DNA of 64,000 nucleotides from contig JBDHZF010000001.1 in NCBI GenBank assembly GCA_039811765.1, positions 457 through 64,456 on the forward strand, given 5' to 3'. The position numbers were made by a program, and so were the translations under genes. Shown here in pieces: positions 6,224-53,246 of this stretch (position 1 is its first letter; each line of letters begins with the position of its first letter). Below the pieces are notes generated by a model. The model did not search any database and was not told the DNA's origin. It was given only the letters and a program-made list of their open reading frames with translations. The stretch comes from Thermoleophilia bacterium. GTDB lineage: Bacteria > Actinomycetota > Thermoleophilia > Gaiellales > SKUG01.

Positions 6224-7411
<1,188 letters not shown>

Positions 7412-18440: not shown

Positions 18441-18584
18441 ACCACCAGCGATCCGCCGCGAAACTCAGCAGGACGATCCGACGACCGGATCATCGATGGG
18501 CCACCTGGCACGTGCGGCGCGAATCGATCCGCAGATTCCGAACAAATCGCTCACGATGTCGCGCGAAGGGCCGATATCTCACCG

Positions 18585-31025: not shown

Positions 31026-31991
31026 TCACGCGAAGGTGCGCGAGCGACGCGACCGCACCCATACGCGCGAGCCGACGTCGAGCCCGAGCTCTTCCACGCG
31101 ATCGCGGGTGAGCTGCGCCCACACGTGCCACGCGTCCGCACGCTGCAGCTCCACGCGCACCTCGAATCCGAGATGCACGACGCGTGTCACGTCCGCCTGC
31201 GCGCCGCCGTCGATCTCGTCGTTGGAGATCTCCAAGTCGTGCGGGCGAACGAGCGCGCCGTCCACTTCGGTCACCGGACCGAGGAAACCCATCACGAATT
31301 CGTTCGCGGGGTGCTCGTACACCTCGCCGGGCGCGCCCACCTGCTGGATCTCCCCGTGGTCGAGTATCACCACTTCGTCGGCGATGTCCATCGCCTCTTC
31401 CTGGTCGTGCGTCACGATCACGGTGGTGACGTGCATGTCGTCGTGCAGGTGGCGCAGCCACGTGCGCAGCTCGCGCCGCACCTTCGCGTCGAGCGCGCCG
31501 AACGGTTCGTCGAGCAGCAGCACTGACGGCTCGATCGCGAGCGAGCGCGCGAGCGCCATGCGCTGGCGCTGCCCGCCGGAGAGCTGCGACGGGTAGCGCT
31601 CGGCGAGACCGTCCAGCTGCACCAGCGACAACAGCTCGTGCACGCGATCGCGAATCGCGGATCGGGCGCGACGCTCCTTGCGCGGCTTGATGCGCATGCC
31701 GAACGCGACGTTCTCGAACACCGTCATGTGACGGAATGGCGCGTAGTGCTGGAACACGAAGCCGATGCCGCGATCCTGCGGCGCGAGCTCGGTCACGTCG
31801 GCGCCGCCGATCACGACCGTTCCCGCGTCCGGAATCTCAAGGCCCGCGATGATGCGAAGCAGCGTCGACTTGCCGCTTCCCGAGGGGCCGAGCAGCGCCG
31901 TGAGCGATCCGTCGCCGATCGACACGTCGACCTCGCGCAGCGCGACATGCCCACCGAAGGTTCGGCTCACGCCGTGTACGTCGATGCTCAT
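31026..31991 (-). CDS. cysA: Sulfate/thiosulfate ABC transporter ATP-binding protein
   Basis: In-frame ATG 31991 ([14 protein letters not shown]...). Walker [10 protein letters not shown], signature LSGGQRQR, Walker B LLLDEP. It is last in the cysPTWA gene order. Confidence 0.9.
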
Positions 31992-31995
31992 CGCG

Positions 31996-32808
31996 TCAGT
32001 TCCTTTCCTGCGATTCGTCGTGACCCGTCGCGGAGCGTCCAAGCACGGTCATCATTCCGAGGATGCCGATCGCGAGCGAAGCGAGCACGAGCGCGGATCC
32101 GTACACCGCAACGGTGTCGAATCGGGCGTAGCTCTCCTCGATGTGCACCGTGAGCGTCTCGGTGCGACCGACGATCTTCCCGCTCACGACCGCGACGGCG
32201 CCGTATTCGCCGAGCGCGCGAGCCGCCGTCAACACCACGCCATATGCCACGCCCCAGCGGATCGATGGCAACGTGATGCGCCAGAAGGTGGTCCAGCTGC
32301 TCGCGCCCAATGTCCACGCCGCCTGCTCTTGTTCGTCGCCGATCTCCTCGAGCACGGGCACCACTTCGCGCACCACGAACGGCAAGGTGACGAACACGGT
32401 TGCGAAGACGATCCCCGGCAGCGCGTAGATCACCGGAAATCCGACGTCGACGAGCCACGTGCCGAACCAGCCGTTCACGCCGAACGTGAGCAGCAGCGCG
32501 AGCCCCACTACCACGGGCGAGATCGCGAACGGGAGGTCGATGATCGCGTTCAGCAGCGCCGTGCCGCGAGGGCGCCGTCGCACGACCAGCAGGGCGCAGG
32601 CGATTCCGAAGATCGTGTTGACGAGCACGCTCGCCCCCAGCGCGATCAGCGTGAGCTTGAGCGCGTGCACCGCCGCAGGATCGGTGATCGCGTTCCACAA
32701 CTCGTCGAGCCCTTGCCCGAGCGCATTGTAGAACACCATGTAAAAGGGTCCGATCACGAGCATGCCGACCCACACGAGCGCGAACACGCGAAGCACGTAC
32801 CTGCTCAT
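31996..32808 (-). CDS. cysW: Sulfate ABC transporter permease
   Basis: In-frame ATG 32808 ([13 protein letters not shown]...), ATGA overlap with cysT, and the EAA-type loop [17 protein letters not shown]. Confidence 0.88.
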
Positions 32809-33608
32809 CGCATCGACCTCCGCCTGATCACGTCGAGCACGGCCAGCACGATCACGCTGGTGCCGAGCAGCACGCAACTCACCGCGGCGGCGCCAGCCGG
32901 GTCGGCGCTTTCGATCAGTCCGAAGATGTAGACCGACGCGACCTCGGTGTGGAACGGCACGTTGCCGCTGATCAGCACGATCGAGCCGAACTCGCCGATC
33001 GCCTTCGCGAACGAGAGGCCCGTGCCGGTGACGATCGCGGGCACGAGCGCCGGCAGAATGATGCGACGAACGACCGTGCGCGGCTTGGCGCCGAGCGACT
33101 GCGCGGCCTGCTCCACTTCCCGATCGAGTTCCATCAGCACCGGTTGGACGCTGCGAACCACGAACGGAAACGTGACGAAGAGCAGCGCGGCGTAGACGCT
33201 CGCTCGCTGGAAGGCGATGTTCACGTGCACCGGCGAGGACGGGCCGTACAGCGCAAGCAGCGTGAGACCCGCCACGATCGTGGGCAGCGCGAACGGCAGG
33301 TCGATGACCGCGTTGAGCAACCGCTTGCCACGGAATCGATCGCGCACGAGCACCCACGCCACGAGCGTGCCCGTGATCGCGTTCACGAACGCGATCACGA
33401 TCGACGCGAGAAACGTGAACTTGAGGGCCGCGCGCGCCTGCGGATTCGAGAGCGTGCGCACGAACGCGTCGTCGCCGTCCTTCGTCGCGCTCCAGATCAC
33501 CGCGGACAGCGGCAAGATCACGACGAAGCCGAGCACCGCCGCGACGATGCCGATCGACAGCACGTCGCGCCCGCTCGAGCCTCGCCGGATCTTCGCCTCG
33601 TCAGCCAT
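32805..33608 (-). CDS. cysT: Sulfate ABC transporter permease
   Basis: Track ORF of 267 aa. It has the loop MELDREVEQAAQSLGAKP and an 8-nt overlap with the binding-protein gene. Confidence 0.88.
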   Translation of the reverse strand: MADEAKIRRGSSGRDVLSIGIVAAVLGFVVILPLSAVIWSATKDGDDAFVRTLSNPQARAALKFTFLASIVIAFVNAITGTLVAWVLVRDRFRGKRLLNAVIDLPFALPTIVAGLTLLALYGPSSPVHVNIAFQRASVYAALLFVTFPFVVRSVQPVLMELDREVEQAAQSLGAKPRTVVRRIILPALVPAIVTGTGLSFAKAIGEFGSIVLISGNVPFHTEVASVYIFGLIESADPAGAAAVSCVLLGTSVIVLAVLDVIRRRSMR

Positions 33609-34647
33609 CCGTGGAAACGCCGAGCTTCTTCTCGATGTCGGCCACGTACCCCTTGTCTCGGTCGAAGAAGTCGTCCATCACCGCGTCCCAGCCGCCGAGG
33701 TCGTCGATCGTGAACAGGTCTTTCGGCTCCGGGAACGCTACTCCTGCCGCATCCGCGGCTCCGTCCACCACCGGGCGATACCCGTGCTTGGCGAACGTCT
33801 GCTGCGCCTCGTCCGAGTAGAGGAACTTCACCCATGCGTCGACGGCCTCCTTCGCCTTCGTGCCGTCGAGCGTGGCCATCGGGTTCTCGATCAGGATCGT
33901 GGAGTCGGGCACAATGTGCTCGAAGTCGCCACCCTCGGCCTCGGCCTGGATCGCTTCCTGCTCGTAGGCAAGCATCGCGTCGCCCTTGCCAGTGCCGAAC
34001 ACCTGCAACGCCTCGCGAGCGCTCTTGCTCTGCACCGGCGTGTTCTTGAGCAGCTGCTCCATCTTGTCGAGCGCCTCGTCGTGGCTGTCGCCGGCGCGCG
34101 TCCACGCGCCGTACGCCGCCATCAGGTTCCAGCGCGCGCCGCCCGACGTGAACGGGTTCGGCGTCACGACCTCCACGTCGTCGTCGAGCAAGTCGTCCCA
34201 CGTCTTGATGTGCTTCGGGTTGCCCTTGCGCACGACGATGGCAACCGTGCTGTTGGTGAGCATGCCGTCGTGACCACCGACCGTGGTCCAGTCGTCGGAC
34301 ACGAGCTTCGCGTCGACGAGCCGCTGCACGTCGGGCTGGAGCGCGAGGTGGACGAAGTCGGTGGGCAGGCCGCCTTCCACGGCGCGCGACTGCTCGCCTG
34401 ACGAGCCGTAGGACTGGTCGAACTGCACGTCCTTGCCGTCCTTGGTCTTGTTGAACATCGGGATCAGCTCTTCGTAGGCCTCGCGCGGCGTGGAGAACGC
34501 CACGAGCGAAATGCGATCGCCGGCGTTCGGCGCCGACGCGGATTTCTTGGTCGAGTCGCTGTCGGAATCGCAGCCCGTGGCGAACACAGCGGCCATGGCG
34601 ATGGGGACGAGCGCGCGCAGCGCCGTGCGAAGCTTCGAAGTGGCCAT
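33601..34647 (-). CDS. Sulfate/thiosulfate-binding lipoprotein (Sbp/CysP/SubI family)
   Basis: In-frame ATG 34647 (MATSKLRTALRALVPIAMAAVFATGC, lipobox). The conserved motif TSGGARWN is present. Confidence 0.88.
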   Translation of the reverse strand: MATSKLRTALRALVPIAMAAVFATGCDSDSDSTKKSASAPNAGDRISLVAFSTPREAYEELIPMFNKTKDGKDVQFDQSYGSSGEQSRAVEGGLPTDFVHLALQPDVQRLVDAKLVSDDWTTVGGHDGMLTNSTVAIVVRKGNPKHIKTWDDLLDDDVEVVTPNPFTSGGARWNLMAAYGAWTRAGDSHDEALDKMEQLLKNTPVQSKSAREALQVFGTGKGDAMLAYEQEAIQAEAEGGDFEHIVPDSTILIENPMATLDGTKAKEAVDAWVKFLYSDEAQQTFAKHGYRPVVDGAADAAGVAFPEPKDLFTIDDLGGWDAVMDDFFDRDKGYVADIEKKLGVSTDG

Positions 34648-34841
34648 GCTGAATGGTCCTTTCACATATTTCCTACCGAACAGGCCGGGATTATGGAGAA
34701 GCGGGTCGGACGCAGTCAAGTCGACCAAACGAATCTCGATTCAACCGGTTGGATTTCCGGGTCATGCCCATGCGGCCGCCCAGGGCTGGGGAGTCCGGTT
34801 TTGAGCGGGGTCCGGGGCTCGGCTCGCGCCACTATCGAGCG

Positions 34842-34886
34842 AATCCGACGGTTCAGGCGACGGATTCGCCCGATAGCGCTCGCCAC
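34842..34886. promoter_or_regulatory. 16-bp-arm inverted repeat in the cysP/Rrf2 divergent region (operator or leader-hairpin candidate)
   Basis: CTATCGAGCGAATCCG (34842-34857) pairs with the reverse complement of CGGATTCGCCCGATAG (34871-34886) at 15 of 16 positions, with a 13-nt spacer. Confidence 0.35.
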
Positions 34887-34961
34887 GACCTCACGCCAAC
34901 GAGCCACGACCTCAAGGCACGGTTCTCCGTGTGCAGGGCCTCGATCTGCGAGGATCGGCGC

Positions 34962-35423
34962 ATGAGGATCTCCGCCAAAGCCGAATACGCCGTGCGGGCG
35001 GCGCTCGAGCTGGCCGCGGCCGTGGACGACGGCGCACCGATGAAGGCGGAAGCGATCTCGCGCGCGCAGGAGATCCCGGCGAAGTTCCTCGAATCGATCC
35101 TGCTGGATCTGCGCCGCGCGGATCTCGTGCGCAGCCAACGCGGCGCCGTGGGCGGCTATTGGCTCGCGACCGAGCCCGACGAGGTGTCGATCGCGGACGT
35201 GATCCGCGCGGTGGACGGTCCGCTCGCGTACGTGCGCGGCGAGCGACCCGAGCACGTGGAGTACTCCGGCGCGTCCGAACACCTGTCGGGAATCTGGATC
35301 GCGCTGCGCGCCAGCTTGCGCATCGTGCTCGAGGAGACATCGCTTGCCGACGTGCTCGACGGACGGCTTCCCGCCCCGGTGAGCGCGCTGGTCAACGACC
35401 CCGACAGCTGGACTCCGCACTGA
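34962..35423 (+). CDS. Rrf2-family transcriptional regulator without cysteines (CymR-like)
   Basis: In-frame ATG 34962. MRISAKAEYAVRAALELA...IPAKFLESILLDLRRADLVRSQRGAVGGYWLA is a typical Rrf2 wHTH. No Cys residue is present anywhere in the protein. Confidence 0.88.
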   Translation: MRISAKAEYAVRAALELAAAVDDGAPMKAEAISRAQEIPAKFLESILLDLRRADLVRSQRGAVGGYWLATEPDEVSIADVIRAVDGPLAYVRGERPEHVEYSGASEHLSGIWIALRASLRIVLEETSLADVLDGRLPAPVSALVNDPDSWTPH

Positions 35424-36355
35424 TGCGACGGCGTCGCCGACGCGGCCGAGGCATTCCGACCGCCGCGCTCGTCGCCGGCGTGGTCGTCGCCCTCGGCGCT
35501 TCGGCGTGGCTGTTCATTGCGCAAGGCAGCGACGATTCGGACGCGAAGCGCGAGCACAACCAAACTGAAGCGGGCGAGCAGAAGGACCAGGCCGACAGCG
35601 TGCTGGAGCTGCCGAAAGACGACACGCCATCGGGCGATCGCCTGGATCCCGACGCGGTTCGCAACGGTTCGCGGGGCGAGGACGACGACGCGAACGAGGA
35701 CGACGCGGGCGTCGATGCCGACGGCGGCGCGAGTCCGGCCCTGCTGCAGCACCTTCGCGGCACGCGGGTCGCGCTTGCGAACGCCGCCGCGGCTGGCGCG
35801 GGCGACGAGGACAGGATATTGCGCATCGGCGCGACGCGCGTGGCCTGCGCTGCCGCGACCGATCCTGTGCGCGCACGCGCGCAAGAACAGTTGACCGCCG
35901 AACTCGCACGCCAACTCGCCGCCGCCGGCGCGACGGTCACGCGCGCGGACGATCGTCCGTCGTGCGTGGACGCGCGATCGACGAGCTTGGCGAAGGCCGA
36001 GTACGGGATCGTCGTCGGCGACGCGGATGCTCGACGCGTGCTGCCGGCGACCGGCGCGAACGCAAACGCTGCGCCAACGCCAGGCTCGAGGAGCCTCGCG
36101 AACGAGATCGCAGGCTGGCTTGGCCTCGACGGCTCCACGATTGCGGCAACCTCCGCCGCTCGACAACACGTTGCGAGCGTTGCGGCGATCACGACGACGA
36201 ACGCAGCGTCGATTGCGCTCGTCGAGGTCTCGTCCTCCGACTTGCAGGCCACCGCCGCGAAGGAGACGGCCGCGTCGATCGTCGCCGCGATCGCGAGCGC
36301 CGCGACGCACGCTATTGCGCCGCAGCCTCGCCCCACGGATGGTGCGCGACCGTGA
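35423..36355 (+). CDS. Membrane-anchored hypothetical protein (acidic linker plus Ala-rich C-terminal domain)
   Basis: The ATG overlaps the Rrf2 stop (TGATG). MRRRRRRGRGIPTAALVAGVVVALGASAWLF forms a TM anchor, followed by a D/E-rich stretch. The function is unrecognised. Confidence 0.65.
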   Translation: MRRRRRRGRGIPTAALVAGVVVALGASAWLFIAQGSDDSDAKREHNQTEAGEQKDQADSVLELPKDDTPSGDRLDPDAVRNGSRGEDDDANEDDAGVDADGGASPALLQHLRGTRVALANAAAAGAGDEDRILRIGATRVACAAATDPVRARAQEQLTAELARQLAAAGATVTRADDRPSCVDARSTSLAKAEYGIVVGDADARRVLPATGANANAAPTPGSRSLANEIAGWLGLDGSTIAATSAARQHVASVAAITTTNAASIALVEVSSSDLQATAAKETAASIVAAIASAATHAIAPQPRPTDGARP

Positions 36356-37712
36356 CGACCCGCTCACCTTCGGGACCGTCCGGCAGGTAGACCCGAAAGG
36401 ACGCGCCGGTGCCGGCGCGATTGCCGTCGCGGTCGCCTTGGTGACGCTCCTCCACCCAGGCACGTCCACCGTGCAAGCGCGCGAATCGATCCACGAGCGA
36501 CAGCCCGATGCCCGTGCCGGGTTTGTGGCCGCTCGTCAACGCCCCGCGCTCGAACGGCGCGAAGATCGTTCCGCGATATTGAATCGGCACTCCGGGACCC
36601 TCGTCGTCCACGCGCAGCAAGATTCCGTCATCCACTCGTTCCAGATGGATCTCGACCGTGGACGATGCCGGCGAGTACTTGAGCGCGTTGCCCACGAGGT
36701 TGTCGATGACGCGCTCGACCTTCCCCGCGTCGACGATTCCGATCGCATGCTCCTGATCCACGACGAGCGACCGACCGGTTGCTTCGGCGGCTCGATGCGC
36801 GCAGGCGCGCGCGAGTTCGGCGACATCGACGCGCGCACGTTCGATCGACACGCTCCCACGCCCCATCCGCTCGATGTCGAGCAGGTCCTCGAGCAACCGT
36901 TCCAACCGATGCGATTCCTCCACGACGTGATCCAGCATCACGCGCGCCTCAGGCGCGAGTCCGGGCGAGAAGTCGCGAATCGTCACCGAGAAGCCCAAGA
37001 TCGAGGTGAGGGGCGTGCGCAGCTCGTGCGACACCGCGGCGAGGAACGTGGAACGAAGCTCGTCGAGCGATCGAAGCGCCGCGGCGGCCTCTTGCTCCGC
37101 ACGCAGCGCGAGCAACAGCCGCGCGTGTTCGCGACGGGCGCGCTCGGCCATCCACCCGGCGACGCACGCGATCAGGAACCCCACGCCCACGCGGAAGGAG
37201 ATCGAGGTCCAGTAGAACCCGAACTCGAATCGGTCCGAAGCCCACGCGTCTCGAAGCGCGTACGACACGCCGACCACGCCCATCGTGATCAGCGACCCAC
37301 GAATGCCGTATCGATACGCGCCCTCGACCACTGCGACGTACCCGACCACGAAGATCGCCGTGTAGACGTCGAACGAGAAGACCCAAATCAGCGCGATCGC
37401 GAACGCCGTGTCCGCAGCCAACGCGAACGCGCCCACCCAGCCGCGCCCCTCGTACGCCTGCTCGGTGCCTCGCTCGCGCATCCATGCGACCGTGATCACG
37501 ATCGAGCACGCCGTGATCGTTGCGATGACGGTCCATGCCGCGGCGCGATACCCCGCCGGGTACGGCAGGTAGAACGTGGCGACCTGAACGGCGGCGAAGA
37601 CGATCGCGACCCACCGGATCGCGACCATCACCCCTTCCGCGTCCACCCGCTTCACATCGGCACGAAGTTCCACGTTCACATCGTACGTCGCCAAGGCGCA
37701 CGGAGCCAGCAT
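36312..37712 (-). CDS. Sensor histidine kinase with a polytopic membrane N-terminus (no adjacent response regulator)
   Basis: H-box FLAAVSHELRTPLTSILGF, N-box GNALKYSP and G-boxes DDEGPGVP and GTGIGLSLV. There are about six N-terminal TM segments. The exact start is uncertain. Confidence 0.88.
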   Translation of the reverse strand: MLAPCALATYDVNVELRADVKRVDAEGVMVAIRWVAIVFAAVQVATFYLPYPAGYRAAAWTVIATITACSIVITVAWMRERGTEQAYEGRGWVGAFALAADTAFAIALIWVFSFDVYTAIFVVGYVAVVEGAYRYGIRGSLITMGVVGVSYALRDAWASDRFEFGFYWTSISFRVGVGFLIACVAGWMAERARREHARLLLALRAEQEAAAALRSLDELRSTFLAAVSHELRTPLTSILGFSVTIRDFSPGLAPEARVMLDHVVEESHRLERLLEDLLDIERMGRGSVSIERARVDVAELARACAHRAAEATGRSLVVDQEHAIGIVDAGKVERVIDNLVGNALKYSPASSTVEIHLERVDDGILLRVDDEGPGVPIQYRGTIFAPFERGALTSGHKPGTGIGLSLVDRFARLHGGRAWVEERHQGDRDGNRAGTGASFRVYLPDGPEGERVVTVAHHPWGEAAAQ

Positions 37713-37751
37713 TCGAACGAATCCTTTGCAGCATCTCGCAGTCCTTTCGCA

Positions 37752-37859
37752 CTAGAGGACGTGGCAGAAGTCCCCGTGGATGGCGGGCGAGCGGCCCGGC
37801 GAAGCGAGCGCCGTCCAGGCGCCGACTGACGCCGCGCGGATTTCTGCCACGTCCGCTAG
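37752..37859. repeat. 108-bp element with 18-bp terminal inverted repeats (MITE/REP-like)
   Basis: CTAGAGGACGTGGCAGAA (37752-37769) matches the reverse complement of TTCTGCCACGTCCGCTAG (37842-37859) at 17 of 18 positions. The arms stay partly complementary for about 10 more nt. The left arm recurs at 30887. Confidence 0.7.
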
Positions 37860-37915
37860 CGAATCGCACGACAACCAAATCGTTCCATTCGCGCGGATCT
37901 GAGATATTGCGTCGC

Positions 37916-39406
37916 ATGACACAGCCCGACGCCGTTTCGCAGCACGCCCCGTCCTCCGCCACGTCCACTGCGATCAGCGTGATGCACGGGGACGGCATCG
38001 GCCCGGAGGTCGTCTCGGCTGCGCTGCGGCTCATGCAGGAAGCCGGGGCCAAACTGGACGTCGAAGCGTGCCGCGCGGGAGCGCAGGTGTTTCGCGAGGG
38101 CAATTCCACCGGCGTGCCGCAGGAAACGATCGATTCCATCACCCGAACGGGCGTGGCGCTCAAGGGGCCGCTGGAGACGCCGATCGGCTACGGCGAAAAG
38201 AGTGCGAACGTCACGTTGCGCAAGCTGTTCGAGACGTACGGCAACATTCGCCCGGCCCGTGAGATTCCCGGGCTCGCCACGCCGTACGCCGGCCGCGGCG
38301 TGGACCTCGTCATCGTTCGCGAGAACCTCGAAGATCTATACGCGGGCGTGGAGCACATGCAAACGCCGGGCATCTGCGTCTCGCTGAAGATCATCACGCA
38401 CCACGGAAGCGAGAAGATCTCGCGCCTCGCGTTCGAGTACGCGCGCGCGACGGGTCGCAAAACCGTCACGTGCGCCACGAAGGCGAACATCATGAAGCTG
38501 GGCGAGGGGATGTTCAGCCGCACGTTCGACGAGGTGGCAGCGGACTACCCGGACGTCGAGGCGCGCCAGATCCTCGTCGACAATTGCGCGCACCAGCTGG
38601 TGATGCATCCCGAGCAGTTCGACGTGATCGTCACCACGAACATGAACGGCGACATCCTCAGCGATCTCACGAGCGGCCTGGTGGGCGGCTTGGGCTTCGC
38701 GCCGAGCGCGAACATCGGCTCGGAGACGGCGATGTTCGAGGCTGTGCATGGCTCCGCGCCGGACATCGCGGGCAAGGACATCGCGAACCCGTCCGCGCTG
38801 ATGTTCAGCTCGGCGATGATGTTGCGACACATGGGCCAGCCGGACGCGGCCGACGTGATCGAGGACGCGCTGCTGTTCACGCTCGAAGAAGGACGCTTCC
38901 TGACCGGCGACATCGCGCGCGACCATGAAGCCGTGGGCACGACGGCGTTCACCAACGCGGTGATCGACAACCTCGGCAAGCAGCCCACGGTAGGCGAACG
39001 CCGAACCTCGAAGCCGCTCGTGATGCCGCACAGCAGCTGGCGACCGGAGTTCGTGCGCGCGAAGGTCACCGAGGTCGTGGGCATGGAGGTGCTGCTCGAA
39101 AAAGAGGACATGAGCGCGAACGAGGTGGGGCATCTCGTGGAGCGCTGCGTCGAGGGCAGCCCGCTGAAGCTGGCGCTCATCTCCAGCCGAGGCAACAAGG
39201 TGTACCCCGGCGATCCGGACGACGTGGAGATGATCGAGACGTGGCGCGCGCGATTCGTGCGAGTCGACGATTCGCAGTCCGTGACCGACGAGCAGATCTT
39301 CCGCGTGGTGAGCTGCCTGGGCGAGAACTTCCGCTGGTCCAACCTGCAGAAGCTGCTGATGTTCGACGGTGAGCTCGGCTACACCAAGGTCAGCGGCGAG
39401 GCCTGA
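37916..39406 (+). CDS. icd: Isocitrate dehydrogenase (isocitrate/isopropylmalate dehydrogenase fold) with a ~150-aa C-terminal extension
   Basis: In-frame ATG 37916. Motifs present: SANVTLRKLFETYGNIRP, VRENLEDLYAG, NMNGDILSDL and HGSAPDIAGK. Confidence 0.88.
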   Translation: MTQPDAVSQHAPSSATSTAISVMHGDGIGPEVVSAALRLMQEAGAKLDVEACRAGAQVFREGNSTGVPQETIDSITRTGVALKGPLETPIGYGEKSANVTLRKLFETYGNIRPAREIPGLATPYAGRGVDLVIVRENLEDLYAGVEHMQTPGICVSLKIITHHGSEKISRLAFEYARATGRKTVTCATKANIMKLGEGMFSRTFDEVAADYPDVEARQILVDNCAHQLVMHPEQFDVIVTTNMNGDILSDLTSGLVGGLGFAPSANIGSETAMFEAVHGSAPDIAGKDIANPSALMFSSAMMLRHMGQPDAADVIEDALLFTLEEGRFLTGDIARDHEAVGTTAFTNAVIDNLGKQPTVGERRTSKPLVMPHSSWRPEFVRAKVTEVVGMEVLLEKEDMSANEVGHLVERCVEGSPLKLALISSRGNKVYPGDPDDVEMIETWRARFVRVDDSQSVTDEQIFRVVSCLGENFRWSNLQKLLMFDGELGYTKVSGEA

Positions 39407-39464
39407 CGGGGCGCAGAGCCAGCATCATTCCCGCCATTTCCCATCGGAATGGTAGACTTTTGGC

Positions 39465-40442
39465 ATGGCGCCCATGCTCACAACACCAGCGACGACGATT
39501 CGACGACACGTCACCGACGAGCAGCTGCACGCTCGCTTGCTGGACGAGGTGCGGACCGGTCTGGTGTCAGAAGCGCCGTGGCTGCCCACGCGACTGCTCT
39601 ACCTCGGGCTGGGCGGGCGCCGCTTCGAGGCTGTCGCCGGCGATCCGCGATACCGACTCGCGCGCCGCGAACAGGCGCTGCTTCGACGGCACGCGCGCAC
39701 GATCATGCAGCTCGCGGATTGCAGCCATGTCCTGGAGCTGGGCGGCGGAGCGTCCGAGAAGCTCGCGACGCTGGTCGCGTCGACCGACGCCCCGCTAACA
39801 GTTACCGCGGTGGACGTGGACGAGCCGGGAGTGGTGCGGGGACTGGACATGCTCGCGACATCGCACTCACACGTACGCGACACCGAAGCGATCATCGGCG
39901 ACATGCTCGACGATTCACACGAGTTGCCGCGACACGGTCGACGCTTGGCGGCGCTGCTCGGCAGCACGCTCGGCAACTTCGACGAGCAAGAGCGAACCGT
40001 GCTCCTGCGTTCGGTCGCCAGCAGCAGCGAGTCGGGCGATGCGCTGCTGCTCGGATTGGACGTGAACGGCCGCGGGTTCGACCAGTTCTTCGCGTACTCG
40101 AGCGACGCGATCTCGAACTTCAATCGCGAAGCGTTCACCACGCTTGGCGCGCTGCTCGCCGAACCGCTGACGCGCGACGACGTCGACCACCGCGTGGAAT
40201 GGAGCGACGTCGAACGCGCGGTGCGCGTGCAGCTCGTGCCGCGACACACGATCGAGCTGACGAATCCGGCCCTCGGCGATTCGATCACGATTCGCGCTGG
40301 CGTGCCGATCACAACCGCCGTCAGCCGCAAGCCACGCCCGGACACGCTGGACCGCGAGCTTGCCGCCGCTGGATTCGACCGCACGACCTGGTGGTTCGAC
40401 GACTCAACGCTGCATGCCGTGGTGCTGGCGCGAAGTGGCTAA
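39465..40442 (+). CDS. EgtD-like SAM-dependent amino-acid N-methyltransferase (Methyltransf_33 family)
   Basis: Motifs present: LELGGGASEKLATLV (SAM motif), LLGSTLGNF, AYSSDAISNFNREAF and the C-terminal TTAVSRKPRPDTLDRELAAAGF..TWWFDD, matching the EgtD layout. Confidence 0.8.
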   Translation: MAPMLTTPATTIRRHVTDEQLHARLLDEVRTGLVSEAPWLPTRLLYLGLGGRRFEAVAGDPRYRLARREQALLRRHARTIMQLADCSHVLELGGGASEKLATLVASTDAPLTVTAVDVDEPGVVRGLDMLATSHSHVRDTEAIIGDMLDDSHELPRHGRRLAALLGSTLGNFDEQERTVLLRSVASSSESGDALLLGLDVNGRGFDQFFAYSSDAISNFNREAFTTLGALLAEPLTRDDVDHRVEWSDVERAVRVQLVPRHTIELTNPALGDSITIRAGVPITTAVSRKPRPDTLDRELAAAGFDRTTWWFDDSTLHAVVLARSG

Positions 40443-41735
40443 GGCGTTCGCCACGATCGCGGCTTGATCGCGCAGCTCCACCACCGCGGTGGTCTCCAGC
40501 AGCTCGCCGCGCCGCAGCGCGCCGATGACGTAGATCGAGGGGGAATCCTCGGCTCTCCGACCAACGGGCGGCGTCAGCCGGCCATCGACGTCCGCGCGCA
40601 CGCCGATTCGCAGCGCGTCCGGTTCGGCGAGGCGGCGTTGGAGCAGCGACCGCACGAAAGGATCGGCGTGGTCGAGGATCGACGTGCCGAACCCGGTGCA
40701 ATTGATCACTCGATCGGCCTCGGCGATCGCGTCCTCGACAGGGCCAGACCAGCGTCGCAACCGCCCGTCCTGTTCGAGCTGGGCGACACGCTGCGCGATC
40801 GCCGGCGCCATGCGATGGCGGATGCACTCCCACGCGCGATCGTAGTGGTCGAAGAACCGCTGCTGTTCGGCTGGAGGGAGCGCGCGCCACAGACTCTGTG
40901 TTCGCGGACGCAGCGCGTCGACCACGTCTCGCCAGTCGAGCCCGACGATCTCGGCGCGCGAGACTGACCGGTCGAAGGCCGCGGCGTAGGCGTCGGCGGT
41001 CGCGTCGACGGTGTCGAACGCGCTCAAGTCCACGTCCGCGGGTCGACCCGGCTCGACGAGGTGCGCGCGTGGCGCCAAGCCAGTGCGAGAGACGGTGAGC
41101 ACCGTCGCGGCGGGATCGACGGTGCAGGTGGTGAGCGCGAGGTCGACTGCGGTGAGTCCCATGCCGATAAGCAGCGTCGTGGCGCCCACGGGAACCGCTG
41201 TCAACGCTTCGGCAGACCACGGATCGTCGATTCCGCGGTCGCCAGCCAGCTCGCGTATCGAATCAGGCAAGCGGGACGGCGCGGGCCCGATCGCAACCAC
41301 GACGTGATCGGCGACGATCGTGGATTCGTCGTCCAGCTGGACCTCCAACCGCTCGGGTCGGCGAATGCCGATCGCGCGCGCGCGACGATGCTCGACGGAT
41401 CGACCGCGTTCGCGCATGCGCTCGATCGCGTCGCTTGCGACATCGGCGAGGTAGTCGCCGTAGCGGGCACGCGGCTGGAACTGCGCGGACGTCGAGTCGA
41501 CACCGTGCTCGCGCAGCCAGCGCACGAATCCATCCGGATCGTTGGCTGATGCGCCCAGCACGCCCGCGCGCACGTTGAGCAGGTGTTGCGGATCAGGCGT
41601 CGAGTACGCGCCGCCCGGGCCGATGCGCGACGCGGGCTCGATCACCGTCACGTCCGCAGCGGTGTCTCGCGCCGCCAGCTCGGCGAGCAGAAACGCGGCG
41701 GCGCACCCACCGCCCACGATCGCGATCTTCGTCAT
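40404..41735 (-). CDS. FAD/NAD(P)-binding flavoprotein (YdhS/NAD_binding_9-like)
   Basis: In-frame ATG 41735, ATGA overlap with the rhodanese stop. MTKIAIVGGGCAAAF, GPGGAYS...HLLNVRAG and a second GxGxxA motif (LLIGMGLTAVD). Confidence 0.8.
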   Translation of the reverse strand: MTKIAIVGGGCAAAFLLAELAARDTAADVTVIEPASRIGPGGAYSTPDPQHLLNVRAGVLGASANDPDGFVRWLREHGVDSTSAQFQPRARYGDYLADVASDAIERMRERGRSVEHRRARAIGIRRPERLEVQLDDESTIVADHVVVAIGPAPSRLPDSIRELAGDRGIDDPWSAEALTAVPVGATTLLIGMGLTAVDLALTTCTVDPAATVLTVSRTGLAPRAHLVEPGRPADVDLSAFDTVDATADAYAAAFDRSVSRAEIVGLDWRDVVDALRPRTQSLWRALPPAEQQRFFDHYDRAWECIRHRMAPAIAQRVAQLEQDGRLRRWSGPVEDAIAEADRVINCTGFGTSILDHADPFVRSLLQRRLAEPDALRIGVRADVDGRLTPPVGRRAEDSPSIYVIGALRRGELLETTAVVELRDQAAIVANALATSRQHHGMQR

Positions 41736-42568
41736 GCCGTCCCCATTTCGATCGGCGCGCCGACCAAGTTGCTCCACTCGATCCACGAGCCATCGTAGTG
41801 TCGCACGTCGTCCAACCCGAGCAGCTCGGAGAGCACGAACCATCCATGCGCCGCGCGCTCGCCGATCCGGCCGTACGTGATCACCGGTTCGCTGCCGGTG
41901 ACGCCCGCTCGCGCGTAGAGCTCGCGCAGCTCGTCCACGGGCCGGAACGCGCCGTCCTCGGTGAGCGTGCAGCGCCACGGCACGTTCACCGCGCCGGGGA
42001 TGCGTCCTGCTCGCGCCGACCCCTCGCCGGGGAATCCGGCAACGTGTGCCACCGATCCTCCGTACTCGGCGGCGCTGCGCACGTCCACGAGCGGGCCGAG
42101 CGCGCGATCGACGAAGCGCGCCACATCCTCGCGATTGGCTCGAATCACAGAATCGTCACGCTCCCTCAGGGCGAACGTTCGCTCGATGCGATTCGGCTCG
42201 GACTCGTCGAGCGGTCGATCCTGCGCGATCCACAGCTCGCGTCCACCATCGAGCAAGCGGAGGTTCGGCGCGCCGAACAGTCGAAGCACCCAAAACGCCC
42301 ATGCGGCACGGCAGTTGTGCGAGTCCCCATAGAGCACGATCGTCGATTCCGAATCGACTCCCATGGAACCGAGCAGCCGCTCCATTCGCGCTCGATCGGG
42401 AAGGTCGCGCACGACAGGATCGGCGAGATCGCGCGCGCTGTCGATGCGATGAGATCCCGGCACATGTCCTTGGTCGTATGCGTCGTGGCGCTCGTCGACT
42501 TCGATCACGACGACGTTCGGGTCGTCGATGTGTCGCTCGAGCCACGATGCGTCGACGACTGGCTTCAT
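41732..42568 (-). CDS. Tandem-rhodanese (thiosulfate sulfurtransferase-like) protein with Gly at the catalytic Cys position
   Basis: Track ORF of 278 aa with a two-rhodanese-domain layout. The active-site loop reads TYGRIGERAAH where the family has YCRIGERS. The Gly codon GGC is at 41870-41872. Confidence 0.85.
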   Translation of the reverse strand: MKPVVDASWLERHIDDPNVVVIEVDERHDAYDQGHVPGSHRIDSARDLADPVVRDLPDRARMERLLGSMGVDSESTIVLYGDSHNCRAAWAFWVLRLFGAPNLRLLDGGRELWIAQDRPLDESEPNRIERTFALRERDDSVIRANREDVARFVDRALGPLVDVRSAAEYGGSVAHVAGFPGEGSARAGRIPGAVNVPWRCTLTEDGAFRPVDELRELYARAGVTGSEPVITYGRIGERAAHGWFVLSELLGLDDVRHYDGSWIEWSNLVGAPIEMGTA

Positions 42569-42571
42569 CGA

Positions 42572-43903
42572 TCAGGCGATCGACGCAGGCACGAGCAACT
42601 CGAATGCCGAGCCTTCGATCGCGCGAGCGTCGATCCCAGCACGACGAAGCGCGCTGGCCACAACGCGAGCGCGGTACCCGGAGACGCACGCGAGGGCGAG
42701 CGGCCCGTCGGGCGCGAGGGACGGATCGCCAAGCAGCAACGAACCGGGGATCGCAACGGCGCCGGGCATCGGCTGTTCGCGCACCTCAGCGGGATTGCGA
42801 ACGTCCACGAGCGTGCGTCGCCCTTCGCGAACGTCGGAGACGAGGTCGCCTTCGGTCGGCGCGCCAACGGCGGGTTCGGTCGCGAGCTCGGACGCCGCGA
42901 CCCATCCGGCGGCGCCTGGCTCGAACACGTCGAGCAGCATCGCATTCGCGTCGTTGGCGCGATCGGCATCGTCGGCGACGAGGATCACGCGCGGCGCGCC
43001 GTGCGCGGCCATGCCGGCCCACACCGTGAACGCCGGACCGGGCGGCAGCTCGATCGCCCCCGCCGCGAGCGGATAGTCGGCGCTCCGGTCGCGCACGTCG
43101 AGCAAGACGTCGTCGTCGCGCAGGTCCCCTGGGGCGAGGCACGGCGCGTCGAATCGCTCCACGGGCGCGACGCCGCGCATGTTCGCTGCGCGCGTGGTGG
43201 GCCAGAACTTTGGAACGGGTGGCAACCCGGCTCTATCGAGCCAGTCCTCGATCCCCAGATCGCGTGCGCGAAGCATCGACGCGATCGCCTGGTTGGCGGA
43301 TCGCTGCTCGCCGATGGTCGTGCTCGTGCCGGGCGCGATCGCTCCGGCGCAGAGCGAGCCCGCGACGTGGGTGGGCAGCACGAGCACGTCGTCGTCCTCA
43401 GCCTCGACGAGATCGAGGATCGTCGAGGCGAGCGCGGTCGCGTGGCGACCGACTCGTTCCGGGCCGCCAAGCAGATCCGGTCGACCCACGTCGCCCACGA
43501 GCAGGCTGCCGCCGCTGAGGATCGCGATCGTCTCGCCGTCGCGCACGCGAACCGCGGTGTGCTCGGGGGTGTGACCGGGCGTGTGCAGCAGCGTGACCTC
43601 GACGGTCGGACCGAGTTCCAGGACGTGGCCGTCGCGGGTTGGAATCGCGTCATAGCCGACGGTCGAGCCGATCGGCGCCAGCGCGGTCGCGCCCAGGGCG
43701 ATCAGCGCGGACAATCCGGAGAGGTAGTCGTTGTGCCCGTGCGTGTCGAGGACCCACGCGATCGTGGAGCGCTGCTTCGCCGCCGCCTCGAGCAGCGTGG
43801 ACACGTCGCGGGGCGGATCGACCACCATGGAAATTCGCGTCTCGGGATCGGTCACGAGGTACGAGGCGTGGCCGAGCTGGGGATTGTGGAACTGCTCGAT
43901 CAT
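42572..43903 (-). CDS. CstB-like persulfide dioxygenase (MBL fold) fused to a pseudo-rhodanese and an active rhodanese domain
   Basis: In-frame ATG 43903 with AAGGAGGA SD. Motifs present: DTHGHNDY, LHTPGHTPEH, a middle rhodanese-like domain without Cys, and the C-terminal loop ACVSGYRA. Confidence 0.85.
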   Translation of the reverse strand: MIEQFHNPQLGHASYLVTDPETRISMVVDPPRDVSTLLEAAAKQRSTIAWVLDTHGHNDYLSGLSALIALGATALAPIGSTVGYDAIPTRDGHVLELGPTVEVTLLHTPGHTPEHTAVRVRDGETIAILSGGSLLVGDVGRPDLLGGPERVGRHATALASTILDLVEAEDDDVLVLPTHVAGSLCAGAIAPGTSTTIGEQRSANQAIASMLRARDLGIEDWLDRAGLPPVPKFWPTTRAANMRGVAPVERFDAPCLAPGDLRDDDVLLDVRDRSADYPLAAGAIELPPGPAFTVWAGMAAHGAPRVILVADDADRANDANAMLLDVFEPGAAGWVAASELATEPAVGAPTEGDLVSDVREGRRTLVDVRNPAEVREQPMPGAVAIPGSLLLGDPSLAPDGPLALACVSGYRARVVASALRRAGIDARAIEGSAFELLVPASIA

Positions 43904-43928
43904 GGCGAAATCCTCCTTGCCTTCTTTT

Positions 43929-43951
43929 CCTACCTGTTTAGTAGGGTATAC
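43929..43951. promoter_or_regulatory. AT-rich pseudo-palindrome plus -10-like TATACT in the divergent cstB-like / cysteine-desulfurase spacer
   Basis: The sequence is CCTACCTGTTTAGTAGGGTATAC. CCTAC/GTAGG arms are present, with TACC...GGTA halves and TATACT at 43947-43952. It is the only AT-rich patch in the 104-bp spacer. Confidence 0.3.
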
Positions 43952-44007
43952 TTTGGGCCGACCCGAGTCAACCCGACTCGCACGACTGCACCAAGGAGGC
44001 AAACGCC

Positions 44008-45183
44008 ATGCGCCGAGCGCGACCGATCTACCTTGATCACCCCGCCACCACGCCGTGCGATCCACGCGTGATCGACGCGATGCTGCCGTGGATGCAACAA
44101 CAGTGCGCGAACGCAGGCCAGTCGGGTCATGCGCCGGGCCGGGCGGCCGCGGCGGCGGTGGAACTCGCCCGCACGAACGTGGCGGCAACGCTCGGATTGC
44201 ACGACAGTGGCGGCGTGCTGTTCACGTCCGGAGCGACCGAGGCGAACAACCTCGCGCTGCTCGGCAGTTCGATCCGACCAGGCGAAGTCGTGGTGATCGG
44301 CGCGACCGAGCATCCCTCCGTGCTCGCGCCTGCGCGCGTGCTCGCCGCGCGCGGCGCGAAGCTGCGCATCGTGGGCGTGGACCACGACGGGCGCCTACGA
44401 CTCGACGAACTCGAATCCGCGCTCGAAGGCGGCGCGGCGCTCGTGTCGGTGCAGGCTGTGAACAACGAGACCGGCGTGATCCAACCCGTCGCGGCGATCG
44501 GCGCCGCCGCACACGCCGTGGGTGCGGCGTTTCACGTGGACGCGGTGCAAGCGTTCGGCAAGGTGCCGCTCGACGTGCACGGCCATGGCATCGATCTCGT
44601 GACGATCTCCGGCCACAAGGTCGGCGGCCCGCAAGGCATCGGCGCGCTCGCCGCTCGCGAACCCGCGCGCGTTCGCGAGCTCGCGCCGCTGCAGCACGGT
44701 GGCGGTCAGCAGCTCGGCATTCGCCCCGGAACCCTGAACGTGCCGGCGATCGTCGGGCTCGGCCATGCCGCAGGCGTGCTGCGAACGAGCGGCCGCGACG
44801 AAGCCGAGCGCATGCGCAGCCTGCGCGATCGACTCGAGCGCGCGATCGCGGGACGGCTCACCGGCGTCACCGTCAACGGTGGAGGCGTGCGACGATCACC
44901 GTCGATCTCGAGCATCACCGTCGACGGGATCGTCGCACGCGACCTGCTCGAGGACCTCGGCGCGGTCGCCGCGTCCACCGGAAGCGCGTGCAGCGGCGGC
45001 GCGCCGTCCCACGTGCTGCGCGCAATGGGTCGCACCGACGCGCAGGTGGCAGGCTCGATGCGCCTCGGCATCGGACGCACGACCACGATCGACGAGATCG
45101 ACGCGGCCGCGGAGCTGCTCGTGGACGCGGTCGCCTCCGCACGCGGGCGCCGCCGAACGCGACGACTCGTCATCACCGCCTGA
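44008..45183 (+). CDS. Cysteine desulfurase (NifS/IscS class V aminotransferase)
   Basis: AAGGAGG SD. PLP-lysine motif SGHKVGGPQG and catalytic-Cys loop STGSACSGGAPSHVL. Confidence 0.9.
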   Translation: MRRARPIYLDHPATTPCDPRVIDAMLPWMQQQCANAGQSGHAPGRAAAAAVELARTNVAATLGLHDSGGVLFTSGATEANNLALLGSSIRPGEVVVIGATEHPSVLAPARVLAARGAKLRIVGVDHDGRLRLDELESALEGGAALVSVQAVNNETGVIQPVAAIGAAAHAVGAAFHVDAVQAFGKVPLDVHGHGIDLVTISGHKVGGPQGIGALAAREPARVRELAPLQHGGGQQLGIRPGTLNVPAIVGLGHAAGVLRTSGRDEAERMRSLRDRLERAIAGRLTGVTVNGGGVRRSPSISSITVDGIVARDLLEDLGAVAASTGSACSGGAPSHVLRAMGRTDAQVAGSMRLGIGRTTTIDEIDAAAELLVDAVASARGRRRTRRLVITA

Positions 45184-52698: not shown

Positions 52699-53152
52699 TG
52701 CCGATCACTTCGAGGCGCATCGTGCCGCGGGGCAGCTGTACCTCGACGGTGTCACCGATCGTCGCCTCCATCAGCGCCGATCCGATTGGCGATTCGTAGG
52801 ACACCTTGTTCTCGAGCGGATCGGCCTCGGAAACGCCGGTGACGATCCACGTCTCGTCCTGCATCGATCCGTCCTCGCGCACGACCACTTTCGAGCCGAC
52901 GGTGACGCGATCGCTGCCGGACGCCTCCACCACCTTTGCGGTGCGCAGCTGCCCCTCGATCACCTGAATGCGTGTCTCCAGGAACCCTTGTTCCTCTTTC
53001 GCGGCGTGATACTCGGCGTTCTCCTTGAGGTCGCCGAGCTCGCGCGCAGCCTTGATCTTCGCGGCCATCGCCGGTCGCTTCGCCTGCAGCGTGTCCAGTT
53101 CGGCGCGAAGCGCTTCGAGGCCTTCGGGGGTGAGGAGCGTGTCGTTGTTCAT
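52691..53152 (-). CDS. greA: Transcription elongation factor GreA
   Basis: In-frame ATG 53152. LTPEGLEALRAELDTL...GDLKENAEYHAAKEEQGFLETRI plus a C-terminal FKBP-like domain. Confidence 0.92.
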   Translation of the reverse strand: MNNDTLLTPEGLEALRAELDTLQAKRPAMAAKIKAARELGDLKENAEYHAAKEEQGFLETRIQVIEGQLRTAKVVEASGSDRVTVGSKVVVREDGSMQDETWIVTGVSEADPLENKVSYESPIGSALMEATIGDTVEVQLPRGTMRLEVIGIS

Positions 53153-53246
53153 GGAACCCGTCCTACCGGAGCGCGCGCATCGCAAAACCCGAACCCGCTC
53201 GGATTTCGCCACAATCCATGAATGCGTGGATCCGGGGTCAAGGATC

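Follow-up and report, generated by a model that had tools for sequence, protein, structure and literature searches.

'L-histidine N(alpha)-methyltransferase' is the routine annotation for homologues of EgtD, which are counted as markers of ergothioneine synthesis. The family reportedly also includes fungal tyrosine- and tryptophan-betaine synthases, which are said to carry Val and Ala at the positions of EgtD residues 252 and 282, respectively. EasF monomethylates prenylated tryptophan and is found within ergot clusters, and EanB takes sulfur from persulfide donors. We know of no characterised bacterial synthase of aromatic amino-acid betaines, and the literature that was searched yielded neither such an enzyme nor, in its text, the pocket residues of the fungal enzymes. 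In EgtD the substrate carboxylate is bound by Tyr56, Tyr206 and Ser284, the alpha-amine is contacted by Asn166, and Thr213 positions a water that is bound to an imidazole nitrogen (PMC8593015). According to a review (PMC9103826), tryptophan specificity and the fungal homologues are addressed in the EgtD paper, and PDB entry 4PIP bears the title 'Engineered EgtD variant EgtD-M252V,E282A in complex with tryptophan and SAH'.

The gene considered here occupies positions 39465..40442 on the forward strand of the window (by which we mean the whole 64 kb stretch of DNA that was analysed) and encodes a protein of 325 amino acids that is predicted to be a SAM-dependent amino-acid N-alpha-methyltransferase of the EgtD family (Methyltransf_33). 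Pfam PF10017 matches residues 27-323 of the 325 with 163.5 bits (cutoff 23, E 7.9e-48); the top sequence match among PDB chains (phmmer) is 4PIP (E 3.5e-33), with wild-type EgtD ranked behind it; and the AlphaFold2 model, whose pLDDT is 91.3, superimposes on EgtD structures with a TM score of 0.91 and an rmsd of 1.7-2.0 Å (Foldseek). By sequence and by model, then, the predicted product is a full-length, confidently folded EgtD-family methyltransferase. Its score against the egtD equivalog model TIGR03438 is 136.1 bits, which is below and in fact less than half of the cutoff of 290.9, and its score against the EasF model TIGR03439 is lower still (83 bits, also below its cutoff of 205.55). The ORF is intact and its GC3 of 0.81 is typical for genes of the window. 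Horizontal transfer of the region was also considered, and the composition check gave no clear anomaly (GC3 0.79-0.85 in the methyltransferase and persulfide-operon genes versus 0.80-0.90 in the other genes sampled). A candidate extended -10 element, TGGTAGACT (39450..39458, forward strand), has its 3' end 6 nt upstream of the methyltransferase ATG and could possibly indicate a separate, leaderless transcript; a scan for consensus sigma-70 promoters and terminators in the surrounding DNA gave no match. It is probable that the gene is transcribed from a promoter of its own and functions independently.

The sequence-only reading had pointed to Ala at the position of the substrate-selecting Glu of EgtD, and the alignments place it there. 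Codons 283-290 of the methyltransferase, ACA ACC GCC GTC AGC CGC AAG CCA, read T-T-A-V-S-R-K-P, and in the phmmer alignment to PDB chains 'piTTAVSRKPRP' lies without gaps over EgtD 'mlTEVSCKFRP', so that Ala285 (GCC, 40317..40319, forward strand) corresponds to Glu282 and Ser287 to Ser284. MAFFT alignments of 148 and of 12 sequences reproduce the correspondence of Ala285 with Glu282. Among the 146 best family matches this position is Glu in 122 and Ala in only three, all three of which belong to the small clade described below. It takes two base changes to turn GCC into either Glu codon, and this distance, together with recurrence of Ala in independent metagenomic homologues, rules out a sequencing error; because the Ala is in addition invariant in the clade (4/4) and rare in the family, chance is not a satisfactory explanation either. 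The sequence-only reading had also stated that E282A with a second change shifts activity toward tryptophan and that Ser284 contacts the substrate; the title of 4PIP confirms the former, and Ser284 indeed binds the carboxylate (PMC8593015). The Ala observation is in fact stronger than that first reading stated; M252V, T213I and a shorter loop had been missed.

The second of the engineered positions is also changed. An ungapped alignment of 'ERAVRVQLVP' with EgtD 'EERIEMWLRA' places Val255 (GTG, 40227..40229, forward strand) at Met252, so both substitutions of the engineered EgtD-M252V,E282A occur naturally in this protein as Val255 and Ala285. The loop/helix A210-F219, 'AYSSDAISNF' (40092..40121, forward strand), lacks two residues relative to EgtD 'AYDDAAGVTAAF'; MAFFT places this two-residue deletion in the Tyr206-Phe216 loop (EgtD numbering), which contains the Thr213 position, where the methyltransferase has Ile216 (40110-40112). 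Thus Glu282, the water-holding Thr213 and the pocket-lining Met252, the imidazole-reading set of EgtD, are replaced by Ala285, Ile216 and Val255, all of them small and hydrophobic. The changes relative to EgtD at pocket positions are D40L, Y57R, T213I, M252V and E282A, along with D207S and D208S, and F287 is altered as well. The kept EgtD residues are Y39, F47, Y56, G161, T163, N166, A205, Y206, F216, S284 and K286; here Y39, F47, Y56 and G161 are represented by Tyr46, Phe54, Tyr63 and Gly166, and N166, Y206, F216, S284 and K286 by Asn171, Tyr211, Phe219, Ser287 and Lys289. Alignment also finds SAM-binding motif I kept as 'VLELGGGASEK' (39729..39761, forward strand; EgtD 'LVELGSGTSEK'), as is the 'GSTLGN' motif (39960..39977, forward strand) with Asn171, the equivalent of the alpha-amino contact Asn166. 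Because the clade has lost Thr213, which 4PIP keeps, and because D40, Y57, D207 and D208 are changed, the pocket is not simply that of 4PIP, and tryptophan may not be the substrate. An Arg stands at the Y57 position in the query (Arg64) and in one homologue (P0002), and it could point to a substrate with an acidic group.

Relatives that share these replacements are few. Word-based searches, an exhaustive HMMER search over 1.84 billion representatives and a metagenome contig scan found only P0002, P0016 and P0017 besides the query, all on contigs of 1.2-2.1 kb, and the clade, at four sequences among the representatives of about 15 billion proteins, is thus very rare. The three are 40-49% identical to the query (HMMER), the four group as a monophyletic unit in a neighbour-joining tree, and the triad at positions 213, 252 and 282 reads Val or Ile, Val or Ile, and Ala in 4/4. 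Its conservation at 40-49% identity points to purifying selection on a new pocket. By comparison, the triad is Thr/Met/Glu in 94 of the 146 family matches, and the ten relatives of at least 500 amino acids all retain Thr, Met or Ile, and Glu; the six of these ten that were scanned with Pfam are fused to DinB_2/FGE-sulfatase (EgtB-type) or HisG domains. The nearest neighbours of the clade are canonical bacterial EgtD-type sequences, which suggests from sequence relationships that the clade arose independently of the fungal betaine synthases.

The layout of the ORFs and their Pfam domains agree with the earlier description of a gene that converges on a rhodanese/persulfide operon near a cysteine desulfurase. 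The adjacent gene (40404..41735, reverse strand) converges on the methyltransferase gene with a 39 bp overlap and encodes a FAD/NAD(P)-binding 'YdhS'-family protein (PF13454) whose AlphaFold2 model (pLDDT 94.7) has as its best folds the aspartate N-hydroxylase FzmM, PvdA, KtzI and SidA; a sulfide:quinone reductase is disfavoured for this flavoprotein, because the solved structures closest to it in fold belong to class B N-hydroxylating monooxygenases. Next to it lies a tandem rhodanese of the CysA/SseA type (41732..42568, reverse strand), a thiosulfate sulfurtransferase homologue for which 1UAR (E 6e-79) and 3AAX (E 8e-74) are the best matches and EanB (6KTV) gives E 2.5e-14; in the alignment of 'itYGRIGERaaH' with 'vvYCRIaERssH' Gly233 (GGC, 41870-41872) stands in place of its catalytic Cys. 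It is followed by a CstB-like metallo-beta-lactamase-fold (MBL) protein fused to a rhodanese (42572..43903, reverse strand; Pfam and alignment), in which the C-terminal Cys406 is kept, and, divergent from this MBL-rhodanese operon, by a class V cysteine desulfurase of the NifS/IscS-like type (44008..45183, forward strand; Pfam and NCBIfam). A sulfate ABC transporter and Rrf2 are further sulfur-themed neighbours of the methyltransferase. As had been noted, the window holds no egtA, egtB, egtC or egtE gene among its approximately 40 ORFs (Pfam), nor did any of these ORFs show an FGE-sulfatase, DinB_2, GCS2 or EgtC-type amidotransferase domain; the sole class-V PLP enzyme of the window is the NifS/IscS-like protein, which scores 79 bits against an egtE model cutoff of 400.

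Parts of this arrangement are found elsewhere. On a metagenome contig (L003) the rhodanese gene is followed by the flavoprotein gene, which is convergent and overlapping with a methyltransferase gene, at protein identities of 48-60%, and the rhodanese there carries the Gly too. A syntenic Thermoleophilia contig (L104) has the desulfurase and MBL-rhodanese as a conserved divergent pair and also the flavoprotein, and both the methyltransferase and the tandem rhodanese are absent from it. Unrelated genes lie downstream of the methyltransferase in P0002 and P0016, and on contigs L001 and L002, in a comparison of few and short contigs, the flavoprotein is not downstream of it. None of 19 GTDB loci with flavoproteins of 29-41% identity has a methyltransferase, rhodanese or MBL-rhodanese gene within 10 kb; flavoprotein homologues this distant are uninformative on linkage.

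We favour, at a probability of roughly 55%, an active EgtD-family betaine synthase that would not be histidine-specific and would act on Trp, Tyr, Phe or another hydrophobic amino acid. The kept framework would bind a free L-amino acid by its alpha-amino and alpha-carboxylate groups and support repeated methyl transfer, and Ala285, Ile216 and Val255 would be expected to form a bigger, apolar side-chain pocket. The reaction would be trimethylation to a betaine, and Trp, Tyr, Phe or another hydrophobic amino acid appears the most likely substrate because two of the pocket changes match those that convert EgtD to a tryptophan methyltransferase. The position beside a persulfide-handling operon probably has no mechanistic role. 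That the product could be a different amino-acid betaine had been proposed from the letters of the DNA, and the residue comparison lends this proposal good support.

The substrate could instead be neither histidine nor aromatic (Met, Leu or S-alkyl-cysteine) or be a modified amino acid such as the prenylated tryptophan of EasF, or the reaction could stop at mono- or dimethylation; this is possible but doubtful. The pocket is altered beyond the engineered pair (T213I with the loop deletion, D40L, Y57R, D207S and D208S), which would suit such a substrate, as would the sulfur-themed surroundings (sulfate ABC transporter, Rrf2, desulfurase, CstB-like protein and rhodanese) and the weak EasF-family match. 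However, the M252V/E282A pair is an experimentally validated way to tryptophan acceptance (4PIP), the EasF score is well under its cutoff and lower than the egtD score, and no prenyltransferase or natural-product genes were found near the methyltransferase gene.

It is unlikely that the protein is still a histidine methyltransferase, that is, a divergent EgtD or EanA that reads the imidazole differently, with the other ergothioneine genes elsewhere in the genome. All three imidazole-specific positions are hydrophobic here, Thr, Met (or Ile) and Glu are found in every relative of at least 500 amino acids, six confirmed EgtB-type or HisG fusions among them, and the score is under half of the egtD equivalog cutoff; these points weigh more with us than the facts that the closest characterised relatives are all EgtD and that the contacts to the amino-acid backbone are kept. 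Mutants of Glu282 are said to suffer large losses of activity, which we count against histidine as well. The absence of egt genes counts against histidine too; it applies to the 64 kb window that the gene survey covered, and canonical egtD and other egt genes may lie elsewhere.

Sulfur transfer in concert with the neighbours also seems improbable. Here a betaine would receive desulfurase sulfur by way of rhodanese persulfides, by analogy with the logic of EanA/EanB, to give a new thio-betaine; the sequence-only reading had leaned this way in likening the locus to EanA/EanB. The rhodanese-flavoprotein-methyltransferase arrangement does recur in L003 in spite of protein identities of only 48-60%, the window and L003 each carry the methyltransferase together with the Cys-less tandem rhodanese while L104 has neither, and there is a cysteine desulfurase next to a rhodanese domain that retains its Cys; the co-occurrence, however, is based on three loci only. 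Moreover, the tandem rhodanese has Gly233 for the catalytic Cys and is of the CysA/SseA type rather than the EanB type, and the methyltransferase gene is convergent with the operon, with which it does not form one transcription unit, and is separated from the rhodanese by a flavoprotein with an N-hydroxylase fold. The desulfurase/MBL-rhodanese/flavoprotein unit lacks a methyltransferase in L104, the downstream genes are unrelated in P0002 and P0016, and at the 19 more distant flavoprotein loci no methyltransferase or rhodanese lies inside 10 kb. The EanA/EanB analogy is therefore weak, and a thio-betaine product would be of low probability. A decidedly improbable extension of it is that the methyltransferase and the Cys-less rhodanese were acquired jointly into a conserved cluster (cysteine desulfurase, CstB-like persulfide enzyme and flavin monooxygenase-like protein) and that all of these would make a new sulfur- or oxygen-modified non-histidine betaine, with the inactive rhodanese as a substrate-binding or persulfide-relay partner; if this were true, the product would be a small molecule akin to ergothioneine whose scaffold is new. 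Finally, a decaying or non-catalytic paralogue, as the long branch of this orphan lineage and the scarcity of its relatives might suggest, is very improbable given an intact ORF with GC3 typical of the window, the kept SAM motif and backbone-binding residues, an altered pocket conserved in four sequences at 40-49% identity, and a confident AlphaFold2 model.

This is a natural lineage of bacteria that has exchanged its histidine-reading residues, two of them for the same pair that served to redesign EgtD for tryptophan. If a non-histidine betaine synthase is the correct reading, bacteria would join the fungal homologues and the engineered enzyme in the synthesis of betaines from aromatic or hydrophobic amino acids. 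Positions 213, 252 and 282 would then serve in annotation as a signature that separates hercynine synthases from other betaine synthases. Given its extreme rarity, the clade is more a curiosity for specialists than a trait of wide occurrence.

How, then, does the protein compare with the described systems? With EanA/EanB it shares the proximity of a PF10017 methyltransferase to a cysteine desulfurase and to proteins with rhodanese domains, but it differs from that system in the CysA/SseA-type rhodanese, with its Gly for the catalytic Cys and its EanB match of just E 2.5e-14, in its convergent genes and apparently non-histidine pocket, and in an operon that occurs in a related genome with no methyltransferase. 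EasF (TIGR03439, dimethylallyltryptophan N-methyltransferase) belongs to the same Pfam family and has a non-histidine, indole-bearing substrate, but the match of 83 bits against a cutoff of 205.55 is poor and there is no ergot-type cluster here. EgtD of Mycobacterium smegmatis and M. tuberculosis (PDB 4PIM, 4UY6, 7SCF; TIGR03438) has PF10017, a similar length and the fold in common with it, as well as the SAM motif, the alpha-amino residue N166, the carboxylate residues Y56, Y206 and S284, and Y39, F47 and F216; the two differ in that identity is about 28%, E282A, M252V and T213I with the two-residue loop deletion set the present protein apart, D40, Y57, D207, D208 and F287 are changed, and egtA/B/C/E are not nearby. 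The engineered EgtD-M252V,E282A (4PIP) has the same two residues, Val and Ala, in exactly corresponding places of the alignment, whereas the present protein is a natural one of about 29-30% identity that has lost Thr213, has a shorter loop and carries several other substitutions. With the fungal tyrosine- and tryptophan-betaine synthases it would share the concept, trimethylation by a PF10017 enzyme of an aromatic amino acid and not of histidine, but unlike them it is bacterial, encoded in actinobacterial, high-GC DNA.

The ORF at 39465-40442 (+) translates into a 325-aa methyltransferase that is spanned over its whole length by PF10017 (Methyltransf_33, "histidine-specific methyltransferase"; Pfam E 7.9e-48, 163.5 bits), and its scores lie below the cutoffs of both the NCBIfam egtD equivalog TIGR03438 (136.1 bits against 290.9) and the EasF model (83 bits against 205.55). 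An AlphaFold2 model with 22 homologues as input is confident (pLDDT 91.3, pTM 0.89), and all 15 of its best Foldseek matches in the PDB are EgtD structures (TMq 0.84-0.92, rmsd 1.7-2.5 Å), after which come generic class I methyltransferases at TM ~0.5.

The codons ACA ACC GCC GTC AGC CGC AAG CCA at 40311-40334 encode T-T-A-V-S-R-K-P, and a gap-free phmmer pairing of this region ("piTTAVSRKPRP") with M. smegmatis EgtD ("mlTEVSCKFRP") equates Ala285, Ser287 and Lys289 with EgtD Glu282, Ser284 and Lys286, respectively, as do two MAFFT alignments. The sequence-only reading had placed an alanine at the Glu282 position, and DNA and alignments alike bear this out; a single-base error at Ala285 is ruled out, since two bases of its codon (GCC, 40317-40319, +) would have to change to give GAA or GAG. 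That reading had also stated that E282A with a second change turns EgtD toward tryptophan, in agreement with the deposited title of 4PIP, [quoted passage not shown]. This entry is the top PDB sequence match (E 3.5e-33) and outranks wild-type EgtD (4.1e-32) because the protein also has a valine, Val255 (GTG, 40227-40229, +), at the Met252 position, where the pairing is ungapped ("ERAVRVQLVP" with EgtD "EERIEMWLRA"). With Val255 and Ala285 it thus has by nature the pair of changes that engineering introduced into the tryptophan enzyme.

EgtD Thr213 and the Ala205 carbonyl position an ordered water that is hydrogen-bonded to the basic imidazole nitrogen (PMC8593015). Here Ile216 takes the Thr213 position, and the Tyr206-Phe216 segment is two residues shorter in the alignment ("AYSSDA--ISNF" versus EgtD "AYDDAAGVTAAF"). 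The EgtD residues that contact the substrate carboxylate (Tyr56, Tyr206 and Ser284), its alpha-amino group (Asn166) or make van der Waals contacts with it (Tyr39, Phe47 and Thr163) (PMC8593015) are all kept, as is the SAM motif "ELGGGASEK". At three positions with about 90% or higher conservation in the family the protein departs from EgtD, having L for D40, R for Y57 and S for D208 (EgtD numbering), and it also has S for D207 and P for F287.

Judged by this correspondence and the published EgtD contacts, the enzyme would retain all that is needed for holding a free L-amino acid through its backbone and methylating it from SAM, all polar contacts to the imidazole would be lost, and the pocket would be larger and apolar. 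Since the backbone and SAM residues are kept and the imidazole contacts are not, we conclude that it is probably an amino-acid N-alpha-methyltransferase without histidine specificity. Given the exact M252V/E282A pair and the tryptophan bound in 4PIP, its likeliest single product would be an aromatic amino-acid betaine, be it hypaphorine or the betaine of tyrosine or phenylalanine, in line with the earlier suggestion of a different amino-acid betaine. In view of the changes beyond the engineered pair (T213I, the loop deletion, D40L and Y57R), the substrate may instead be a different hydrophobic amino acid or a modified one, with an aromatic one still our first choice. Vit et al. (ChemBioChem 2015) reportedly showed that fungal EgtD homologues make tyrosine and tryptophan betaines and that in the double mutant specificity changes by many orders of magnitude; the review PMC9103826 confirms that paper's general content only.

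We searched 1.84 billion cluster representatives, which stand for about 15 billion proteins, exhaustively with HMMER and obtained 2380 members of the family, only four of them with E below 1e-30. Three of these four, all metagenomic, form a clade with the window's protein: P0002 (48% identity), P0017 (a fragment, 49%) and P0016 (40%). The fourth, P0018, and all other matches are at most 36% identical to it (most 25-33%) and mostly of the canonical type. At EgtD positions 213/252/282 the window's protein has I/V/A, P0002 and P0017 have V/V/A and P0016 has V/I/A; the two-residue deletion is common to all four sequences, and a rough neighbour-joining tree groups them as monophyletic. Glu stands at position 282 in 122 of the 146 best family matches, Gly in nine and Ala in three, the last being the clade members; 94 matches have the joint state T/M/E. 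As a functional reference, all ten matches of at least 500 aa keep T, M or I, and E at the three positions, and Pfam scans of six of the ten found fusions to DinB_2 and/or FGE-sulfatase domains of the EgtB type or, in one, to the histidine-biosynthesis enzyme HisG (ATP phosphoribosyltransferase). With the triad conserved in the clade and T/M(I)/E in the long relatives, the new pocket is a conserved feature that defines the lineage, and the old triad goes with enzymes whose architecture ties them to histidine and ergothioneine. Outside the window, PF10017 methyltransferases fused to HisG and to DinB_2/FGE-sulfatase domains occur in both orders (P0083, P0025, P0056, P0064, P0146 and P0105). Singleton family members carry other altered triads (e.g., I/V/F and H/V/T; nine with Gly at 282), which suggests several independent specificity shifts within the family.

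The methyltransferase gene is preceded by sulfate ABC transporter genes (31026-34728, -) and genes for an Rrf2 regulator (34965-35423, +), a hypothetical protein (35423-36355, +), a histidine kinase (36312-37712, -) and isocitrate dehydrogenase (37916-39406, +). The 58-bp gap 5' of it holds TGGTAGACT, ending 6 nt before the ATG, which could be the extended -10 element of a leaderless transcript; a consensus promoter scan around the gene found nothing. Beyond it lie genes for an FAD/NAD(P)-binding "YdhS" flavoprotein (PF13454; 40404-41735, -), a tandem rhodanese (41732-42568, -), an MBL-fold protein fused to rhodanese (42572-43903, -) and a NifS/IscS-like cysteine desulfurase (44008-45183, +), so that the order across 39465-45183 agrees with the convergence on a rhodanese operon near a desulfurase described earlier. 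The 3' ends of the convergent methyltransferase and flavoprotein genes share 39 bp (40404-40442), which leaves no space for a terminator between them, and 68 bp (484-551) in L003, a short JGI metagenome contig that bears P0017. The flavoprotein gene is translationally coupled to that of the tandem rhodanese by an ATGA overlap (41732-41735) within the persulfide/rhodanese operon. Pfam scans of about 40 ORFs found no EgtA, EgtB, EgtC, EgtE, OvoA or EanB-type protein in the window, so the reported lack of egtA/B/C/E holds there; a canonical egt cluster may still lie elsewhere in the genome, beyond these 64 kb.

The tandem rhodanese is close to Thermus and mycobacterial CysA/SseA-type thiosulfate sulfurtransferases (1UAR, E 6e-79; 3AAX, E 8e-74), EanB structures match it only at about 1e-14, and its catalytic cysteine is replaced by Gly233 (GGC, 41870-41872, -; "itYGRIGERaaH" versus "vvYCRIaERssH"). 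The L003 rhodanese (1923-2120) also has Gly at this position, so the protein is a conserved and presumably non-catalytic rhodanese. The MBL-rhodanese resembles 3TP9 and 3R2U, which we take to be CstB-like persulfide dioxygenase-sulfurtransferases, and still has the cysteine in its C-terminal rhodanese domain. The flavoprotein has no sequence match in the PDB; the nearest folds to its confident AlphaFold2 model (pLDDT 94.7) are those of the aspartate N-hydroxylase FzmM (TMq 0.74-0.76) and of PvdA, KtzI and SidA, which N-hydroxylate ornithine or lysine, so that a class B flavin monooxygenase fold is predicted. With N-hydroxylases as the nearest folds, a sulfide:quinone reductase is disfavored.

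Is the methyltransferase linked to these sulfur genes? In favor, its fragment in L003 (49% identity) is followed by the convergent, overlapping flavoprotein gene (48%), itself preceded by a rhodanese 60% identical to the window's; against it, contigs L001 and L002, which bear P0002 and P0016, have unrelated genes downstream. L104 (GCA_025964465.1, JAOPYS010000146.1), a Thermoleophilia MAG contig, is syntenic with 31026-45183 (Rrf2 79%, sulfate-binding protein 61%, kinase 59%, desulfurase 56%, MBL-rhodanese 47%, flavoprotein 41%, and a hypothetical protein), with the isocitrate dehydrogenase/kinase block rearranged; it has a divergent desulfurase / MBL-rhodanese-flavoprotein unit and lacks both the methyltransferase and the tandem rhodanese, which likewise speaks against linkage. 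A further point against it is that none of 19 genome loci of more distant flavoprotein homologues has any of these partners within 10 kb. Desulfurase, CstB-like protein and flavoprotein therefore make up a module of their own, beside which the methyltransferase and Gly-rhodanese co-occur in two lineages, on the basis of three loci. N-hydroxylase-type and N-trimethylating enzymes would be rivals for one amine and not successive steps, which also argues against a simple shared pathway.

Elsewhere in the window, a single ORF of 4078 codons (18441-30677, +; GC3 0.90) encodes PA14 and many bacterial Ig-like domains (Big_13, Big_7 and Big_3) and is presumably a surface adhesin. Two tandem flagellin genes (2467-3411 and 3559-4446, both +), notable if the host is a Thermoleophilia-like actinobacterium, adjoin a gene for a MerR-HTH/receiver-domain regulator (1829-2395, -). 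A host of this kind, within the Actinomycetota, is suggested by the synteny with L104 and by the named homologues of the flavoprotein. Frames of 676 codons (9180-11210, +) and 862 codons (53010-55598, +) have coding-like GC3, the former with essentially no Pfam match and the latter with only a weak Big_7 match. In the 961-codon frame at 4526-7411 (+), Glu/Leu/Phe/Val dehydrogenase domains are confined to residues 604-933, so there is either a long N-terminal extension or a true start much further downstream.

We found no characterised bacterial counterpart of the methyltransferase in the literature. Its clade is tiny and the chemistry has precedent; the prediction is clear, easily tested and useful for annotation. 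The EanA/EanB route (methyltransferase plus rhodanese) to anaerobic ergothioneine, of which the sequence-only reading was reminded, fits poorly, given a CysA/SseA-type rhodanese without its cysteine that matches EanB so weakly and, in L104, a module that stands without the methyltransferase. Like EgtD, the enzyme is predicted to be an EgtD-type betaine synthase in its mode of action, but it differs from EgtD in equivalog score, specificity residues and gene context. It agrees with the one sequence criterion available for the aromatic betaine synthase type, Val and Ala at EgtD positions 252 and 282. Outside its clade its nearest relatives are bacterial EgtD-like sequences of the canonical type, which makes an origin independent of the fungal betaine synthases probable.
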